Virus record (IMG/VR): IMGVR_UViG_3300010222_000017
Coordinates: 1 to 24,020 of that record
Strand: one strand, 5' to 3'
Source of the DNA: a virus
Lineage: Duplodnaviria > Caudoviricetes
DNA length: 24,020 nucleotides
In this document: piece by piece, positions 3,268 through 21,243 of the stretch
Layout of the letters: each line of letters starts with the position of its first letter
How positions within the stretch are numbered: position 1 is the stretch's first letter
Notes under the pieces: model-generated
What the model saw: the letters and a program-made list of their open reading frames with translations, nothing else
Databases searched by the model: none
What the model was told of the DNA's origin: nothing
Made by a program: the position numbers and the translations under genes

Positions 3268-4755
3268 CTAATAGTTACGGGTATCGACCGGAAAGACCGC
3301 GGTGAGGCCGTCGTCACTGACCCCATGGCAAGTAGCAATGTCTTTTTTCTCCTGCGACAGCCGGACGCCAAGACTCTCCACGAAGTCGCCCGCTGGCTTC
3401 GGGCTGGGGCTCACGATGATCGGCGGTCCGTTCCACGGAATACGACCGCTGACGTGGTAGTGCCCCATGTAGGCGATGTCGTACTCGTGATCAATCAGGG
3501 TCGACTGCCATTCCTTTCGTCGAGCCGACGTCTCGGCTTGGGGCCGGCGGTGCTGGCCGTGCCGTAGGTGCCCCCGCATCGCCCCGCCTCGAAGCTCAAA
3601 GTTCCGGTAGGGCCGGGCCTGCCCGATCCGAAAGCGGACATTTCGGAGCACCCCACCGTGCTCTTGGATCTGGGCGACGCAGTTGCGGATGTGCTTGTAC
3701 AGGACCAGATCGGCGTTGGCCTGCCGGGACGTGCCGGACGCCCGGTGCTGGCCGTGATTGCCGACCTGACACACCACCTGCACGGCCCGAAAGCGTTGCG
3801 AGAAGGCCTTGAGTTGCCGGATCAGCGGTCCCACGAGCGTGTCGTGCTGCTCGTCGAGCCAAGCGTCGAGGTGTTCGAACTGACCAGCATAAATGCCCTC
3901 ATTGGTCACGAAGTCCCCGCCCCACAGCAAATGACCGGTATCGAAACCGGCCCTGTGCACGTCAGCGAGCCGAAGCGCCTGCCCCGTGGCATAGTCGATA
4001 ATGTCCGGGATCTCATCCGTAGAGTAGACGACCGTGCCGTCACCTTTGCGGACCCGATCGCCAGCGTGCAGGTCGGTGAGGTGGAGCACCCAGTCTTCCT
4101 GCTCTTCAGTCCGGGGCAGGTCCGGGTCGAGAAGCTCAAGTCCGCGGTACTGGCGCACCAGCTCGTTGTGGCGCATCTCCCACCAGCGATTTGCCTTCCG
4201 TGTACGGGTTCCCTTGTGCTCCGAGGACCGCAGGACATTATCCCCCTCAATCGCTACCATCTCCGCGGTATGGTCGACGTACACCTTCCAGCCCCGGCGT
4301 TTCAGGTTCTTCAGGTGCTGCACGACGACAGACGGCCGAGTGCCGAGGTCGTCGACCAGACCTTCCAACGCTGCCCCCTTTTGGAGTCGCGTAGCGATGT
4401 AGCGCTCCCGGTTGGTCAGGTCCGACACGCGGGGCTCCTCGCCGCGGTCGACGCCGCCTAACTCGTCTTCAAGTACCGAAAGCGGATCTTCCTCCGCATC
4501 CGCGGGCCCGCCGTACGCCGGTTCCACATCGTCGGCATCTGGGGCCGACTGCAACCATTCTGTCAAAGAGCGTGTCCTCTCGTCGTCTTCCTCGTATGCC
4601 TGATACCCCCCCCTCCCCCGCAGATCTCGATTCCGCCAGCGGCGGTGCGTGCTGCGCCCCATCCCTATGGCCTCAGCCACCTCGGTGTGCGCACGATCCG
4701 TCTCCTCGGTGACACGGGCAGCCTCCAAGATGAGCTCGTGGAGCTTGCGGTCCAT
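3268..4755 (-). CDS. HTH-containing calcineurin-like metallophosphoesterase (495 aa)
   Basis: MPP motifs DLH (TDLHAGD), GD (GGDFVTNE), GNH, HG (RHGQH) and GHYH. N-terminal HTH-like segments (EVAEAIGMGRSTHRRW; LVDDLGTRPSVVVQHLKNLKRRGW). Confidence 0.85.
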   Translation of the reverse strand: MDRKLHELILEAARVTEETDRAHTEVAEAIGMGRSTHRRWRNRDLRGRGGYQAYEEDDERTRSLTEWLQSAPDADDVEPAYGGPADAEEDPLSVLEDELGGVDRGEEPRVSDLTNRERYIATRLQKGAALEGLVDDLGTRPSVVVQHLKNLKRRGWKVYVDHTAEMVAIEGDNVLRSSEHKGTRTRKANRWWEMRHNELVRQYRGLELLDPDLPRTEEQEDWVLHLTDLHAGDRVRKGDGTVVYSTDEIPDIIDYATGQALRLADVHRAGFDTGHLLWGGDFVTNEGIYAGQFEHLDAWLDEQHDTLVGPLIRQLKAFSQRFRAVQVVCQVGNHGQHRASGTSRQANADLVLYKHIRNCVAQIQEHGGVLRNVRFRIGQARPYRNFELRGGAMRGHLRHGQHRRPQAETSARRKEWQSTLIDHEYDIAYMGHYHVSGRIPWNGPPIIVSPSPKPAGDFVESLGVRLSQEKKDIATCHGVSDDGLTAVFPVDTRNY

Positions 4756-8355: not shown

Positions 8356-9255
8356 CTAATCGCTTTGCGCGAGACTGTAACCAATCCCTTCCTCCTCCAA
8401 TGCACTGATTAGCGTTTCAGGATGGACACCTCGACCCACATGAAGAAAGGCGTTTTCAGTCGTTCTTCGCTTTCCTCCATGCTGAATCTCTTCATCAAAT
8501 CCCAGGGGATAGTGCCGCGTACTGCTTTGTATTCCCCAGATGTTTCCTTCAGTGTCAAAAATCGGCCCACCGCTCTGTCCGTTGAGTCCGGGCCGTGAAG
8601 TTTCTATAAACTTCACGTCAAATGGAGGGCCCGTCGAACTGTCTTGGTCAGGAGTAAGCACATTGCGAGTGTAGATTCCCTCGATAGGGAAGAAGGGAGG
8701 GAATCCTTCGATCTGGAAGCCTCCATTGTCAAAACTTACATTCAAGTCTGCGAAGGGGTATCCGAGCTTGCATAGGCTCGTTCCAATATCAAGGCCCTCT
8801 GAGGGGTCGATGATGTCGGGGTATCTGTCCACACAACCTGACCCAAAGTTTTTTATCTTACCGAAGGCAAGATCAGCATTGGGGAATATCTTCAGTTCGT
8901 CGACCTCCGCATCAGGCCGCCCAAATACATTGTCGAAGTGTGAAACCCATGGATGCGGACGCCCCTGCGCCTCACGCTTCAACTGCTTTATCTTACCCTT
9001 CTGCTGCATCGGCCCTTCTCTAAGATCGTCGAGCTCCTCTTGAAAATTCTGCCAGGCCTGATGAGCTTGCCGAAGACCTTGAAGCGGCTGGATTACATGA
9101 GATGCTGTTACGAACCATCCGTCATCGTTCAATATAACCATCGCTCCAATGCTTGAGTCAACCTCCCAGTCATCCCCGGGGTCTTCTTTCATCCGAACGA
9201 CTATGATAAGCGGGCGGGTGTAAGAGGTGTTGATCTCGTACGCGTCTGCAAACAT
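8356..9255 (-). CDS. Trypsin-like serine protease (S1/Trypsin_2), no signal peptide
   Basis: Catalytic triad motifs VTASHV (His), ADLA (Asp) and GQSGGPIF (Ser); lower GC than flanks. Confidence 0.88.
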   Translation of the reverse strand: MFADAYEINTSYTRPLIIVVRMKEDPGDDWEVDSSIGAMVILNDDGWFVTASHVIQPLQGLRQAHQAWQNFQEELDDLREGPMQQKGKIKQLKREAQGRPHPWVSHFDNVFGRPDAEVDELKIFPNADLAFGKIKNFGSGCVDRYPDIIDPSEGLDIGTSLCKLGYPFADLNVSFDNGGFQIEGFPPFFPIEGIYTRNVLTPDQDSSTGPPFDVKFIETSRPGLNGQSGGPIFDTEGNIWGIQSSTRHYPLGFDEEIQHGGKRRTTENAFLHVGRGVHPETLISALEEEGIGYSLAQSD

Positions 9256-9390
9256 TAGCTCGGTCGCAAGATCGCTGCCTGAGTCAGTTAGAATTATTTT
9301 CCCTTGTCGGATTCACATCACACCTTACTCCAGCGCGGAGCATGGCAAGAATAATGGTATTACACCAGCACCCGTCCTGCAGATTATATT

Positions 9391-10480
9391 TCATTCTTCA
9401 TAGAACTTGACAGTCTTGCGAAGGTGGTCCGCATGGTCGTATATGTCATCTAGCGTCTCGATCTCGACCCGCTCCTCGTTCTTATCCTCATCGAAAAGGC
9501 CAATCCGTTTCGTCTCCGAGTGAAAATGAAAGCGGCAAATCGGCTGCCGGTTCGTGTCGTCCAAAAGCACATTGAAGTAGCTCTTCAGGTCACGTTTAGC
9601 GACGCGGTCTACGCCAACCACCTCCCGCAGGATTGCCTGCACGATCCGGAAGCCTTCCAACTCGTCTTCGAGGGTCACGACTTCGCCGTCAACCCTGACC
9701 ACGCCTTCCGGCAGCTCCTCTTCATCCTCTTCCTCGTCTGACGACGAAAGCTCCTCCGCGGCGCTTGCCTGCTCTTCTCGGAGGGCCGTCGAGAGGCGCC
9801 CGCGAACCTTGTCATGAACGAGCTGCTGAAGTGCGCCCTCGACGATGCCGCGGAACTGGTCGCGGACGTTTTGTGTGATGCGACCGTCATACACCTTGTC
9901 CGTGAGCCAGTGAACGAACTCGTCTTCCGGGCTTTGCCACTGCTCCTGCAGGTACTCCAGAAGCGCCTTCCGGTACTTTAAGTCGTGGGCCGCATCAATC
10001 ATCTCGTCCAAGTCGAACGTCGAATTGCGGAGGTTCTTAAGCTCTTCTACGTCTTGCTCGGTGTACTCAAACAGATCCAGTTCGTGAAAGGGCCGCTCGT
10101 CCATCCGGTTCGACTCTTCTAGGTCGGAGAAGAAGCGGTACTTCACCCCATTGGTGAGAATGCCAAATCGGGCTTCTGTAAATTGGAAATACCGAAAGAG
10201 CTGCTCGGCTTGGCTGATCGAGAGCTCCCGGCCGGCGATTTTGCACTCGATCAGCACGGCTGGCTTGCCGTCCTGCAGGAGAGCGTAGTCGACCTTCTCG
10301 CCCTTTTTCTCAGCGAAGTCAGCAGTAAACTCCGGCACCACCTCTTCCAGATCGTACGGGTCGTACCGCACTGATAAACGGGATGAGGAGGGCGTGCTTG
10401 GTGGATTCTTCGTTCCGTATATGCTCCACCTGGTCCTCCGCGCGACTTGCGACTTGACCGATCTCCTCCGTGAGGTCCAT
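9391..10480 (-). pseudogene. HsdR N-terminal-like PD-(D/E)xK nuclease domain protein (prophage type), frameshifted near 10367
   Basis: N-terminus MDLTEEIGQV...NEESTKHALLIPFISA is in one frame; YDPYDLEEVVPEFTADFAEKKGEKVDYAL...LIECK...QLFRYF...ILTNG is in another. The span is 1090 nt, not a multiple of 3. Confidence 0.82.
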
Positions 10481-14792: not shown

Positions 14793-16049
14793 ATGAGTGA
14801 TCCCGAACAAGCATTACAGAAGACCGGAGGGGATAGCGCTCCGGTACGACAGGCCGACTTCACGCCTCGGTCGATGCAGGAGCTACAGCGATTCGCCGAG
14901 ACGGTCTCACAATCAAAGATGGTCCCGAAGAAGTATCGGGGCCAACCGCAGGATGTTGTCGTCGCCGTGATGCACGGCATGGAATTGGGCCTCCCTCCTC
15001 TTCAGGCGCTCCAGTCCGTCGCGGTGATCAACGGGCGCCCCAGCATCTATGGAGACGCCGCGTTGGCCGTAGTCCGGCGGAGCGGCCTCCTGGCCGACAT
15101 CGAAGAGTGGACGGAAGGCGCCGGAAGTGATATGACTGCCTACTGCCGTGTCATTCGTGCTGACAGTGGCGAGGAGATCCAGCAGAGCTTCTCTTGGAGC
15201 GAAGCCGAACAAGCTGGATTGGCCCAAAAGGGCGGTCCGTGGCAAGATTATCCGCGCCGAATGATGCAAATGCGGGCCCGTTCGTGGTGCCTCCGGGACG
15301 CTTTCCCGGAGGTGCTGAAGGGCATGATGCTCGCGGAGGAAGCAGAGGCGATCCCACAGTCAAATGGGCAGACCATTGATCCGAAAGGCGAGATGGAGCG
15401 CCCCGACGGCCACACGCCGGAAATAGTCGAATGGCAATCGCCACACGGGCAGGTCTACGAGATCCCGCCCGGCAAAAAAGCATCTCTTCAGAACGCCAGC
15501 GAGGCATTGGAAAAAGAAGACGGTGCTGATCTCGGAGCAAAGATTGAGCAGATTCGCGGAGCCTGGGACTGGGATGGGGAAGCTGATACGGCACTGGACA
15601 GCTTGCTCGCTTACCATGAGCTGCACTTGGCTAACCAGCAAGACCAGAAGGCCGAAGAGGCCGCCGCCGAAACGGGAGAGCCCACGCCCTATGACGGTCC
15701 GCAAGATGCGCTCGAAGCCAACTTCGACACGGCGTGGGCCGAGGGCAACGAGGGCCTTGAGCCGATCTCTGAGGCGCAGCTGGAGCGGATGTATGCCATC
15801 GCGGACGACAACGATTGGGACGAGGCCGCCCTGAACCGGCTTGTGAAGGACGAACTCGGGTACGATTCGAAAAAGGATGTGCCCTACGGCGACCCCTATG
15901 AAGAGATCTGCGCGGCCCTTGAAGACGAGCGCCTGCGCTACCACATCAGCCGCGATCCGGATACGCCGGATATGTTTGAGGAGAGCGCCGACGAAGAGGA
16001 AGCCAACCACCCCGAGTTTGAAGACGCCAACGGAGACCTGCCCTTTTAA
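14793..16049 (+). CDS. recT: RecT/Redbeta-family single-strand annealing protein with long acidic C-terminus
   Basis: GMELGLPPLQALQSVAVINGRPSIYGDA...WQDYPRRMMQMRARSWCLRDAFPEVLKG; ends in DLPF. Confidence 0.85.
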   Translation: MSDPEQALQKTGGDSAPVRQADFTPRSMQELQRFAETVSQSKMVPKKYRGQPQDVVVAVMHGMELGLPPLQALQSVAVINGRPSIYGDAALAVVRRSGLLADIEEWTEGAGSDMTAYCRVIRADSGEEIQQSFSWSEAEQAGLAQKGGPWQDYPRRMMQMRARSWCLRDAFPEVLKGMMLAEEAEAIPQSNGQTIDPKGEMERPDGHTPEIVEWQSPHGQVYEIPPGKKASLQNASEALEKEDGADLGAKIEQIRGAWDWDGEADTALDSLLAYHELHLANQQDQKAEEAAAETGEPTPYDGPQDALEANFDTAWAEGNEGLEPISEAQLERMYAIADDNDWDEAALNRLVKDELGYDSKKDVPYGDPYEEICAALEDERLRYHISRDPDTPDMFEESADEEEANHPEFEDANGDLPF

Positions 16050-17775: not shown

Positions 17776-17930
17776 TCCTCCGCGACTGCGATACATGCGA
17801 GCGCTTCACAGATCACATCCGCCGCCAGTGGGCGGAGACCGATAGCGGCGACCCTGTAATCCAGACCGAATACACCTGCACTGACTGCGGGACTGTCATT
17901 ACCAAAAGCCAGCAGTTCGATGGCGATTGA
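17772..17930 (+). CDS. Zn-ribbon microprotein (52 aa)
   Basis: Translated by hand: MILRDCDTCERFTDH...EYTCTDCGTVITKSQQFDGD; ATGA overlap upstream and overlaps the dnaB start. Confidence 0.75.
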   Translation: MILRDCDTCERFTDHIRRQWAETDSGDPVIQTEYTCTDCGTVITKSQQFDGD

Positions 17931-19272
17931 CTACCCGACCGCACATGACGAGGAGGCCCTTTGCCTGTCGGCGCTGATGCGCTGTGGCGGTGGCCTGCGG
18001 AAGCGAGCAAAGCGGGCCCTCAAGCCCGAGATGTTCGACCGCTACCGCGATTTGGCTCGCGTGGTGCTGGCCACCGATGGGCGCCCGGACGAGGATACCG
18101 TAGCGGCCCGATACGACGGCGACAAGCTGGAGGAGGTGACCGGCCTCCGCCCCGTGCCCAAAAACCTGTTCGCGGGCCGCGGCGATAAGCCCGGGTACGT
18201 CGAGCAAGTGCGGCAAGCCTACGGCTCGTGCCGCACGCTGGAGAAGCTCTACGACCTCGCTGCCGACGTGACGGGCAGCGACTACGCGAGCGTCATTGAG
18301 CGTGCCCAGCAGGACCTCACCGACGTGAGCGCCGAGCTGAACCGTGGGGGCGGGCCGAGTATGACGACGCTGTGCAAGGGCGTTCTGCAAGACCTAGAAG
18401 ACGAGCAGGGACAAACAGTTACGGGCATTCCAAGCGGCTTCCCGCTTTTAGACGACAAGACGAAGGGGTGGCAAGACGGAGACCTGATCATCCCATTCGG
18501 GTCAACCTCCATGGGTAAGACAAGCCTATCGCTCTGCTTCGCCCTCAACGCCGCGAAGGAGGGATATAACGCCGTTATTCACTCCCTAGAGATGCCCGCC
18601 AAACAGCTTACGCGCCGCCTGGTCCAGATGGAAGCGCGGGTCAATCTCCGGCAGACGACGATCCCTGAAAGCGAAATGGATCGCGTTGTGGAGGCGTCCG
18701 CGACGCTGGCGGGCCTTCCCCTGATCGTGCGCGAAGCGTCGGCCTTAGACCCGCTCACGCACAGGAGCAGGCTCCGCCACCTCAATCACGAGCATGGCAT
18801 TGACTTGGCCGTGGTCGATTACCTGCAAGAGATGCGCTCCTCTGACTGGGCGGAAACGAAGCACGACGAAGTGCACGCCGTCGCCTCCGGGCTGAAAGAC
18901 ACGGCGATTGAGCTGGACATCCCAGTGATCTGTCCGTCGCAGACCAGCCGGGCCCCGGACAACCGAAGCGGGTCGAAGCGTCCCAACCTATCGGATCTAC
19001 GCGAGGCTGGGGAGGAGCCTGCGGACACCGCGCTCGGGATCTATCGCCCGGAATACTACGGAATCACACATGACGACGCAGGCGAGCCGACAGAAGGGAA
19101 GGCTGAAATCACCGTCGCTAAGCAACGAAACGGCGAGGCCGGAGCGATGATCAGCCTCGCTTTCGTCGAAGAGCACGCCGCTTTTGAGTCGCTGGACAAG
19201 CGCTCTGGGCCCGCCCAAGCGAATGCTCGGGGCGATGGTGCCCCAGCCACCGAAAACGACGCGCCCTTTTGA
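17920..19272 (+). CDS. dnaB: Replicative DNA helicase
   Basis: TGIPSGF..LD, GSTSMGKT (Walker A), SLEM, VVDYLQ (Walker B), SQTSR, RPNLSDLRE, AKQRNG. Confidence 0.95.
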   Translation: MAIDYPTAHDEEALCLSALMRCGGGLRKRAKRALKPEMFDRYRDLARVVLATDGRPDEDTVAARYDGDKLEEVTGLRPVPKNLFAGRGDKPGYVEQVRQAYGSCRTLEKLYDLAADVTGSDYASVIERAQQDLTDVSAELNRGGGPSMTTLCKGVLQDLEDEQGQTVTGIPSGFPLLDDKTKGWQDGDLIIPFGSTSMGKTSLSLCFALNAAKEGYNAVIHSLEMPAKQLTRRLVQMEARVNLRQTTIPESEMDRVVEASATLAGLPLIVREASALDPLTHRSRLRHLNHEHGIDLAVVDYLQEMRSSDWAETKHDEVHAVASGLKDTAIELDIPVICPSQTSRAPDNRSGSKRPNLSDLREAGEEPADTALGIYRPEYYGITHDDAGEPTEGKAEITVAKQRNGEAGAMISLAFVEEHAAFESLDKRSGPAQANARGDGAPATENDAPF

Positions 19273-19289
19273 TCCAACCTAACTCCGCT

Positions 19290-19730
19290 ATGAGCACCTA
19301 CACACTGTCCGACGCCCAAAGGAATGATCGCTTTCTGGTGGCCTTGTCCAGCAAGAAGAATATCTATCTCGCGGGTCCCATTGGCCAGTGTTCTGACGAA
19401 GAGGCGATGTCTTGGCGCGAAAAAGCGAAGCACGCCTTAGTGGGCCATTACGACATCTTGGACCCGATGCGTCGCGATTACAGGGGGCAATCGGAAGCCC
19501 CCGCGGAAGAGATTGTCACCGGAGACCTCAAGGACATAAAACATAGCGATGTGCTCCTCGCAAATGCCTGGAAGCCCAGTGTAGGCACGAGCATGGAAAT
19601 CTGGATTGCGTCGCAGCAACCCAACACGAAGGTAGTTGTCATTGCCCCTGAACGGTGCTCTCCGTGGCACCGATACTGCGCCGACGGGGTGGTCTCTAGC
19701 TTGCAGGATGCATACGGATTGCTGATATGA
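19290..19730 (+). CDS. Nucleoside 2'-deoxyribosyltransferase / nucleotide N-hydrolase family protein
   Basis: IYLAGPI...WRE...LDPMR...DLKDIKHSDVLL...SVGTSMEI (catalytic Glu). Confidence 0.88.
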   Translation: MSTYTLSDAQRNDRFLVALSSKKNIYLAGPIGQCSDEEAMSWREKAKHALVGHYDILDPMRRDYRGQSEAPAEEIVTGDLKDIKHSDVLLANAWKPSVGTSMEIWIASQQPNTKVVVIAPERCSPWHRYCADGVVSSLQDAYGLLI

Positions 19731-20641
19731 GATTTTTCGTTGGGTGGCATCATCCGACCAGAGCACACAAGGTGGGTAGGCCACACATGCTTAGCGCAAA
19801 TGCCCTGCGCCGGCTCAGCGAGGACTACTCGCTTCCAATCGGGGAGGGGGATCGGTGGATGATGGACTCCGGGGCCTTTAGCCAGATTTCCGGCGAGGCC
19901 GGGTTCTACCAGAGCCCTGCCGAATATGCGATCGAGATTCATCGGTGGTGCCGGTTTGGCACACTCGTGGCTGCGGTCACGCAGGACTACATGTGCGAGC
20001 CTCACATTCTACACCAGCTCGATACCAACGCCAAAGAGCAGCAAGAGCGGACTGTCAAGCGCTACGATGAAATACTCGGGCACCTCTCTCGTCTCGGGAC
20101 GGACACGCATTTGATGCCAGTCCTTCAGGGGTGGGAGCCCCGCCACTATAAGCGGCACTTGGAGATGTATGGCGATCGTCTCACGGAAGACATGTGGGTC
20201 GGGGTCGGGTCGATCTGCAAGCGGAACAGCAGTCCAGCGGACGTAGAGAAAGTGCTTTCTGCAATTACAGACCGCCGCCCCGACCTCCGTCTGCACGGCT
20301 TTGGGATTAAGACCACTGCTCTGCGGCGCAATCCGGTGACCAAGATTTGCGGCACCTCAGGGGAGTGTCTCTGCGGCGCTTTTGATGAAGACGGGCAGGC
20401 CCTTGATGAGCTCAAAGCGCAGTGCAACCTGCTTGGTGAGATGGACCTGTACGAGCGCATCATCTCCCTGCAAGAGGAGGTTTTTGAGGAGTATCCGTGG
20501 CGGTATGATGGGCGTCCCCCGCATTGGTTTGCAGAGGCGCGGAAGGGGCAGATGGCCCTTGAGGGACTGCCCCGATCAGACGATCAAAACCGGGTGGCAC
20601 AGCGGATGTGCGTCGGCTGCGGTAAGCAATCAGTTCAGTAA
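19727..20641 (+). CDS. DpdA/TGT-like base-exchange transglycosylase N-terminal ~200 aa fused to a Cys-rich PAPS-reductase-like C-terminus
   Basis: MDSGAFS, QDYMCEP, PVLQGW, GVGSICKR, LHGFGIK, then an abrupt switch to NPV...SGECLCGAF...MCVGCG. Confidence 0.75.
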   Translation: MRFFVGWHHPTRAHKVGRPHMLSANALRRLSEDYSLPIGEGDRWMMDSGAFSQISGEAGFYQSPAEYAIEIHRWCRFGTLVAAVTQDYMCEPHILHQLDTNAKEQQERTVKRYDEILGHLSRLGTDTHLMPVLQGWEPRHYKRHLEMYGDRLTEDMWVGVGSICKRNSSPADVEKVLSAITDRRPDLRLHGFGIKTTALRRNPVTKICGTSGECLCGAFDEDGQALDELKAQCNLLGEMDLYERIISLQEEVFEEYPWRYDGRPPHWFAEARKGQMALEGLPRSDDQNRVAQRMCVGCGKQSVQ

Positions 20642-20656
20642 ATTAAGGCACACCAC

Positions 20657-21034
20657 ATGACTTCAATCTATCTCGCAGGCGGAATGCAAACCGACTGGCG
20701 CGACCAGGTGCGCGAGCGGGTAGATGCACAGTTCTACGACCCCACAGACCATTGGCTTGATTCCTTGGAGGAGTACGGGCAGTGGGACCTGCACCACGTA
20801 GCCTCAGCAGATGTGCTCTTCTGCTACATCGAGCGGGACAACCCAAGCTGCCTCGGCGCCGCAGTTGAGGCGGGGTATGCTGCCGGACAGGGCACCCTCG
20901 TTGTGCTGGTGCGGGAGCGAAGACACGAGCATTTCCCGGACGAAAAGGTCGCGTTCTTAGAGGCGGTGGCAGACGTTAGCTTCGCTGATCTCGACGACGG
21001 AATTGAGTACTTACTTCACTTTGAACCTGAATGA
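20657..21034 (+). CDS. Second nucleoside 2'-deoxyribosyltransferase-like protein
   Basis: IYLAGGM..DWRDQV..YDP...WDLHHVASADVLF...LGAAVEAGYA. Confidence 0.85.
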   Translation: MTSIYLAGGMQTDWRDQVRERVDAQFYDPTDHWLDSLEEYGQWDLHHVASADVLFCYIERDNPSCLGAAVEAGYAAGQGTLVVLVRERRHEHFPDEKVAFLEAVADVSFADLDDGIEYLLHFEPE

Positions 21035-21243
21035 GAGCCATGCCCCTGACCTCGAACCAACGCGCCTACGCCGCCGCCTATCAGACCGCCCTCGTCGTCG
21101 AGGATGAGGACGAGCCAAACCCCACAGCCTTCGGCATCACCGAAGGCCACGCCGAGATGCTGCAGATCCGCGTCGAGAAGGGCACTGTCGATTTCAGCGA
21201 CGTGCCCGAGATGCTCCGGCCTCCCGAATTCGAAACTGACTGA
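21031..21243 (+). CDS. Acidic hypothetical protein (~70 aa)
   Basis: ATGA overlap with the NDT stop (alternative start 21040). Confidence 0.6.
   Translation: MRAMPLTSNQRAYAAAYQTALVVEDEDEPNPTAFGITEGHAEMLQIRVEKGTVDFSDVPEMLRPPEFETD

Follow-up and report, generated by a model that had tools for sequence, protein, structure and literature searches.

The open reading frame at positions 19727–20641 (+) of the stretch analysed here (the window, 24,020 bases, which is the whole virus record) encodes a chimeric protein of 304 amino acids, P0001, whose N-terminal part comes from a short phage DpdA and whose C-terminal part comes from a protein of the PAPS-reductase family. On balance, the most plausible origin of this gene is a recent illegitimate crossover between alternative modules, by which codons 1–198 of dpdA would have become continuous with the final 106 codons of a PAPS-family gene, with a product that is predicted to be inactive. 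The chimera is likely to be a one-off recombination scar of phage mosaicism, a known type of event, and not a new enzyme. The region comprises the following features.

14793–16049 (+): RecT/Bet-like recombinase (PF03837, E 1.3e-9; TIGR01913 weak, E 1.6e-4)
17920–19272 (+): DnaB helicase, left anchor of a variable slot (PF03796, E 2.9e-61)
19290–19318 (+): leader, 10 codons that open a gene; in relatives this gene runs on as the N-terminus of the PAPS-family protein P0128; junction after 19318
19338–19730 (+): NDT1, nucleoside 2-deoxyribosyltransferase-like (PF05014/PF15891), in frame with the leader at 19290
19727–20320 (+): codons 1–198 (5′ part) of a phage dpdA of the short singleton type, covering strands 1–7 of the barrel, with D47, D87, H144 and H190 kept
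20321–20329 (+): right junction, CTGCGGCGC (Leu-Arg-Arg), a tripeptide common to both parents
20330–20641 (+): Cys-rich C-terminal tail from a gene of the PAPS-reductase (PP-loop) family, lacking the nucleotide-binding domain
20657–21034 (+): NDT2, nucleoside 2-deoxyribosyltransferase-like (PF15891, E 2e-11)

The chimeric frame contains no internal stop or frameshift, and its translation carries, in this order, the TGT-fold motifs DSGAF, QDYMCEP, PVLQG, GVGS and LHGFG and the Cys-rich sequence NPV...SGECLCGAF...CVGC, all as listed in a preliminary description of this DNA. Residues 2–201 match the Pfam DpdA family (PF23859) with an E-value of 4e-30 over profile positions 4–204 of 291 (105 bits against a cut-off of 27), the N-terminal part also matches phrog_1279, and residues 1–201 are identical at 189 of 201 positions to P0003, an intact short phage DpdA of 253 amino acids; the earlier assignment of the first ~200 residues to DpdA is thereby borne out. 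Residues 199–304 are identical at 99 of 106 positions to the C-terminus of P0013, an intact PAPS-reductase-family protein of 307 amino acids, and six PAPS-family proteins have C-termini identical to the tail at 86–99 of 106 positions; all three of them that were scanned (P0013, P0128 and P0022) carry PF01507. None of the five cysteines conserved in the tail has been lost. On its own, the tail has no match in Pfam or PHROG, because it begins where the Pfam domain ends. Assessed separately, residues 1–200 and 200–304 thus fall to the DpdA family and to the C-terminus of the PAPS family, respectively, and both are still 93–94% like their parents. The proposed PAPS-reductase-type character of the tail is upheld by these identities and by the presence of PF01507 in eight of eight non-self tail matches; a DndC-like origin, also suggested, is not, as P0013 and P0128 have no DndC match in NCBIfam at E ≤ 0.001.

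At the right junction the switch from one parent to the other is abrupt and is finished by 20329. The parents read locally TTALRR-ARIRK (DpdA) and ERGLRR-NPVTK (PAPS protein), and the Leu-Arg-Arg tripeptide stands in register in four of four intact members of the DpdA cluster and in six close PAPS-family proteins; when P0003 and P0013 are compared over all 76,555 in-frame pairings of positions, a common tripeptide turns up in only 25, so that coincidence is an unlikely explanation for the one at the join. It is precisely at 20321 that contigs from two metagenome runs (X2 and X4) join the window, and the loose end of the X4 contig encodes the ten PAPS residues that precede LRR; the nine-base match is seen in DNA on the PAPS side and deduced from protein on the dpdA side. 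A switch at ~20325–20335, with CGCAATCCGGT as the microhomology, had been proposed earlier; the actual join lies slightly upstream, at 20321–20329, and CGCAATCCGGT is ruled out in this role because the identity switch is already complete by 20329. The sharp switch and the presence of LRR in both parents do support the broader proposal that two once-separate genes were joined in frame at a short shared sequence.

The join is highly unlikely to be a library or assembly artefact connecting two phage variants. The runs holding the stretch are X1, labelled rock, and X2–X4, labelled halite, and the word share of the stretch is 0.96 in X1 and at most 0.18 in five other runs, of which X5 (0.09) and X6 (0.05) do not enter into the evidence; the chimera itself was seen in X1 only, as an artefact might be. 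A 6,411-bp contig of X1 spans 19000–21138 with 0 differences from the window at a depth of 14.7, and so contains the same join in a second assembly, which is not independent support, X1 being probably the sample from which the record came. An artefact would furthermore require two separate false junctions, and a nine-base overlap is far under usual assembly word lengths.

The second junction, overlooked in the preliminary description, lies at 19318. Two contigs of X2 and sequence of X3 diverge from the window after this position, ten codons into the gene behind dnaB, and the diverging sequence, translated by eye, continues in frame as HEA[G/D]RLWDEMP, corresponding to residues 10–20 of P0128. 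The leader is identical to P0128 at six of the first nine residues, and one of the X2 contigs connects P0128-type N-terminal sequence to the 3′ end of dnaB. A block of 1,002 bp (19319–20320), containing NDT1 and 5′ dpdA, is thus flanked by the opening 10 codons of a PAPS-type gene on one side and by its closing 106 codons on the other. As called, P0013, P0125 and P0127 begin later and do not include the leader, which may be a separate element rather than the true start of the PAPS gene. An 18-base direct repeat (83%) is shared by the 3′ end of dnaB (19212–19229) and the left junction (19313–19330); it is one of 23 such families and possibly due to chance.

In the scheme that we favour, two modules are alternatives behind dnaB, namely NDT1–dpdA (module A) and leader–PAPS gene–NDT2 (module B), and crossovers between phages with the alternative modules would have inserted NDT1 and 5′ dpdA into the PAPS gene. 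On the right, the crossover point would be the nine shared bases (20321–20329), and the piece of A could have entered B as one replacement or by two successive crossovers. The phage RecT is a candidate for the short-homology join; the relevant passages of PMC2327257 describe RecET as joining matches of 5–13 bp at a low rate. Module exchange is favoured over deletion within an operon because the second junction at 19318 opens into a PAPS-type gene start. Counting against it are the reading frame, which is kept at both junctions, and the occurrence of neighbouring dpdA and PAPS-type genes in other phages (L014, L006 and L003; L161/L162).

The earlier proposal of a deletion between adjacent genes describes the in-frame fusion of two genes at a short shared sequence correctly, and as a mechanism it seems to us possible rather than probable. 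An intact dpdA would have been closely followed by an intact PAPS gene, and a deletion between their LRR-coding stretches would have left an equally dead product. A single short-homology event would suffice for the right junction, the two gene types lie a few kb apart in other phages, and, given the later starts of P0013, P0125 and P0127, insertion of an NDT1–dpdA block could have spared an intact PAPS gene. However, the left junction at 19318 calls for a separate event anyway, which makes a deletion less likely than an exchange; no close relative with both genes was found, even though intact dpdA lies on contigs of 6.6 kb (P0122) and 11.9 kb (P0123; 11,893 bp) and the PAPS gene on contigs of 8.3 kb (P0127; 8,318 bp) and 9.4 kb (P0128; 9,442 bp); and the profile of the PAPS subfamily of the window matches 0 of 46 dpdA loci. 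Module exchange and deletion in cis agree that the gene is a broken hybrid.

The composition of the two modules was approached through contig sizes. P0135, a relative of NDT1 (93%), starts at the position equivalent to 19338 and is encoded on a 6,644-bp contig, and the contig of the intact DpdA P0122 equally measures 6,644 bp; NDT1 is likely to be the native partner of dpdA. Similarly, four of five PAPS cluster members are on contigs equal in bp to one of an NDT2 cluster member, and NDT2 is likely to be the native partner of the PAPS-family gene. This evidence for module linkage is indirect, as it consists of equal-sized contigs, most of them short. Between the four contigs with intact dpdA and the 15 contigs with the PAPS tail, no two are equal in bp, and close relatives seem to carry dpdA and the PAPS gene on different contigs; the search for relatives with both genes intact, recommended earlier, accordingly yielded no close one. 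The GC3 content of 19338–21031 is ~0.67–0.70, compared with 0.77 for dnaB, and does not tell the two halves of the chimera apart.

Virus records at large give a similar picture. The short DpdA is found in three of 79 records with the PAPS subfamily and in two of the 30 near-complete ones (the positive control matched), so that the ancestral DpdA plus PAPS-reductase pathway that had been inferred from the fusion is not supported. Conversely, four of 36 dpdA virus records match PF01507, these 36 being taken from 37 viral dpdA loci after omission of L005 as a near duplicate. In two of the three, the proviruses L161 and L162 of similar size, dpdA lies ~3–3.5 kb downstream of the PAPS gene of this family, which is the reverse of the order in the chimera, and in provirus L001 an intact dpdA follows dnaB by 1.6 kb in a record without a PF01507 match. 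A PAPS-reductase-like gene of another subfamily was noted within ~1 kb of dpdA in L014, L006 and L003 (three of the 36 records). Where the ORFs around dpdA (150 of 165 scanned) and around the PAPS gene (85 of 122 scanned) match Pfam, most have to do with replication, recombination or DNA methylation by methyltransferases. The two genes have the look of accessory genes that are independent of each other but belong to the same early region; this shared location explains their occasional proximity and leaves room for a deletion in cis. A gene for a preQ0 transporter-like protein (Vut_1) adjoins dpdA in L001 (4992–8756, shortly after dnaB) and in L037 (4584–5120), and a membrane gene directly before dpdA in L161 looks similar.

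Each half of P0001 has lost a conserved element of its active site. Modelled from 113 alignment rows with a pLDDT of 91, the intact DpdA P0003 folds as a TGT-like alpha/beta barrel; the final strand (210–213) lies past the join, and the best Foldseek matches of the model are TGTs (E 8e-8); a search of PDB sequences with the DpdA profile gave no significant match, so that the fold search alone placed the family. The final 52 residues of DpdA, including strand 8, are replaced in P0001, and with them the S-x-D-S-x-x-W (SADS) motif, whose Asp (D212 of P0003) does not vary in any of the 113 homologues aligned; the absence of this motif with its catalytic Asp, noted earlier from the sequence alone, is thus confirmed. 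D47 (DSGAF) and D87 (QDYMC), likewise invariant in 113 of 113, are both kept. In the model of P0001, the eighth strand present in intact P0003 is missing, which answers the question of barrel completeness that had been raised; pLDDT is below 50 over most of 202–304, and this low confidence is weak evidence because the model was built with N-terminal alignment rows only, the tail having none. On the PAPS side, the SGGxDS PP-loop, present in P0013, P0128 and P0022, is missing from P0001 together with the whole PF01507 stretch (33–206 of P0013). As each half is without a conserved active-site element, the product is probably inactive as an enzyme.

The proposed roles of the DpdA residues derive from a better-studied enzyme. 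Intact P0003 has the same fold as the DpdA of Salmonella Montevideo and the TGT of Zymomonas. For Salmonella DpdA, PMC10164549 proposes Asp95 as general acid/base and Asp256 as nucleophile, and reports that alanine at either position abolishes exchange. Asp95/Phe99, Asp130 and Asp256 of that protein correspond to D47/F51, D87 and D212 of P0003 by spacing and by a weak NF041059 alignment, not by structural superposition; this alignment covers residues 40–216 of P0003 and profile positions 86–259 at ~20 bits against a cut-off of 200, and the short DpdA family, at ~250 amino acids, is smaller than the 406-position NF041059 model. By this mapping, D47 would be the general acid/base Asp and D212 is likely to be the nucleophile; P0001 has no equivalent of Asp256.

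Residues 1–201 of P0001 belong to the short, singleton phage DpdAs (PF23859, phrog_1279, DUF7221), which include WP_423825185.1 of Salinibacter ruber and mycobacteriophage genes annotated as 'queuine tRNA-ribosyltransferase'; background on DpdA subfamilies is given in 10.1101/2023.04.13.536721. Among the Pfam matches of 150 neighbouring ORFs at 27 loci there is no preQ0 synthesis gene, and the Vut_1 transporter occurs at two loci, a setting that fits the DpdA-only group as outlined in PMC6884629. Among phages with a singleton DpdA in that study, Orion has no detectable modification and 7-11 has ~50 dADG per million bases; activity is not certain even for intact singleton DpdAs.

The tail belongs to a subfamily of phage PAPS-reductase-like proteins (PF01507) marked by SGECLCGAF, relatives of which are encoded by Halorubrum tailed virus 29 and by Rhodococcus phage ReqiPine5, and is 93% identical to the C-terminus of P0013; such proteins have the SGGxDS PP-loop and the PF01507 domain, and P0001 lacks both. 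No Dnd family is found among the Pfam matches of the 85 PAPS-gene neighbour ORFs that were scanned, out of 122 called. A complete DndB domain (PF14072) forms part of P0340, a distant member of the subfamily and thus a PAPS–DndB fusion, and the PAPS family has weak matches to TtuA-type thiolases; together these hint at a possible role of the subfamily in (DNA) sulfur transfer. In P0320, a relative of the PAPS parent, a LAGLIDADG intein lies inside the conserved GECLCGAF motif, and this insertion site suggests that the motif is functionally essential.

Searches for proteins of the same architecture bear on whether P0001 represents a fusion family. The full-length search gave 4,724 matches, of which the best 120 are the protein itself, 117 DpdA proteins and two PF01507 proteins; among these 120, only the self match covers more than 87% of the query. 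The cluster of P0001 has two members, both the protein of the window from two assemblies. A search with the tail only gave nine matches among 28 candidates, the eight non-self ones carrying PF01507 only and ranging in length from 167 to 532 residues, and a tail search without length limit among 50%-identity representatives gave 49 matches, 48 of them non-self (36 with PF01507, 11 with nothing and one TPR protein, for which five of its 14 families were shown). The new domain-fusion family that had been offered as an alternative is therefore not supported, as a second such protein is absent from the best 120 full-length matches and from the tail matches, and the DpdA domain was seen in 0 of 8 and 0 of 48 non-self tail matches. 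Virus scans with P0003, P0013, DnaB, NDT2, P0006, an alignment and two DNA patterns, together with a metagenome scan, a genome scan and a phage blastn search, from which very near records may have been omitted, gave nothing closer than 66% (DpdA) or ~50% (PAPS), and a limited literature search found no published account of this fusion. Four PAPS-family proteins (P0130, P0298, P0299 and P0300) look mosaic themselves, with an N-terminal part like that of P0132–P0134 and the last 45 residues nearly identical to the tail of the window.

A working fusion maintained by selection, in which a DpdA barrel of seven strands, extended by a Cys-rich tail that binds metal, would bind or modify DNA in a new way, is very improbable. 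The reading frame is kept at both junctions without stop or frameshift, a longer copy of the junction sequence (11 bases) that would be out of frame lies 50 bases downstream, and X1 yielded no contig with an alternative allele, all of which would suit a selected gene. The single occurrence of the architecture, the loss of the invariant D212 with strand 8, the modelled barrel without that strand and with a tail of low confidence, and the closeness of both halves to their parents argue against it. It is just as doubtful that P0001, its nucleophile gone, has only just arisen as a protein that binds guanine or DNA, such as a decoy or a glycosylase-like anti-restriction factor, and that selection has kept its join in a slot where alternative DNA-modification cassettes are swapped among halite phages. 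Activity of the chimera would make it a new enzyme of a rare sort, both parents being known at >90% identity.

As a recombination scar, the gene resembles the illegitimate or short-homology joins of mosaic temperate phages, such as those treated in PMC2327257, in its abrupt intragenic junction and in the presence of a RecT-family gene; there is no essential difference, and the >90% identity to both parents makes it an unusually clear example of mosaicism cutting through genes at a few shared bases. It is also a warning for annotation, in that the protein is automatically labelled DpdA despite the missing catalytic strand. More generally, the variable slot after dnaB seems to be occupied in turn by genes for short DpdA and for PAPS-family proteins, either one accompanied by an NDT-like gene; the functions of both intact families in these phages are predicted ones.

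By Pfam, PHROG and NCBIfam scans, the right side of the window encodes RecT, DnaB, HNH proteins, a CI-like repressor and an HTH protein of replication, whereas the genes on the left side include those of a holin and of a ParB-methyltransferase; such a gene set points to a temperate phage. The closest named relative of the DpdA of the window is from Salinibacter ruber; hence, the predicted host is likely to be Salinibacter-like. Scans for promoters and terminators gave results at chance level only. Beside the repressor, lower-GC accessory genes at 8356–10371 (−) encode a trypsin-like peptidase and a protein with an HSDR_N domain. In the ParB-methyltransferase gene (1358–2597, −) the reading frame shifts where nine G residues follow one another (1625–1633), and the C-terminal adenine-methyltransferase motifs sit in another frame; this may reflect phase variation, decay or a homopolymer error. 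A 495-amino-acid protein encoded at 3268–4755 (−) has no match in Pfam or NCBIfam and contains a DLH...GD...GNH pattern that we take to be reminiscent of metallophosphoesterases.
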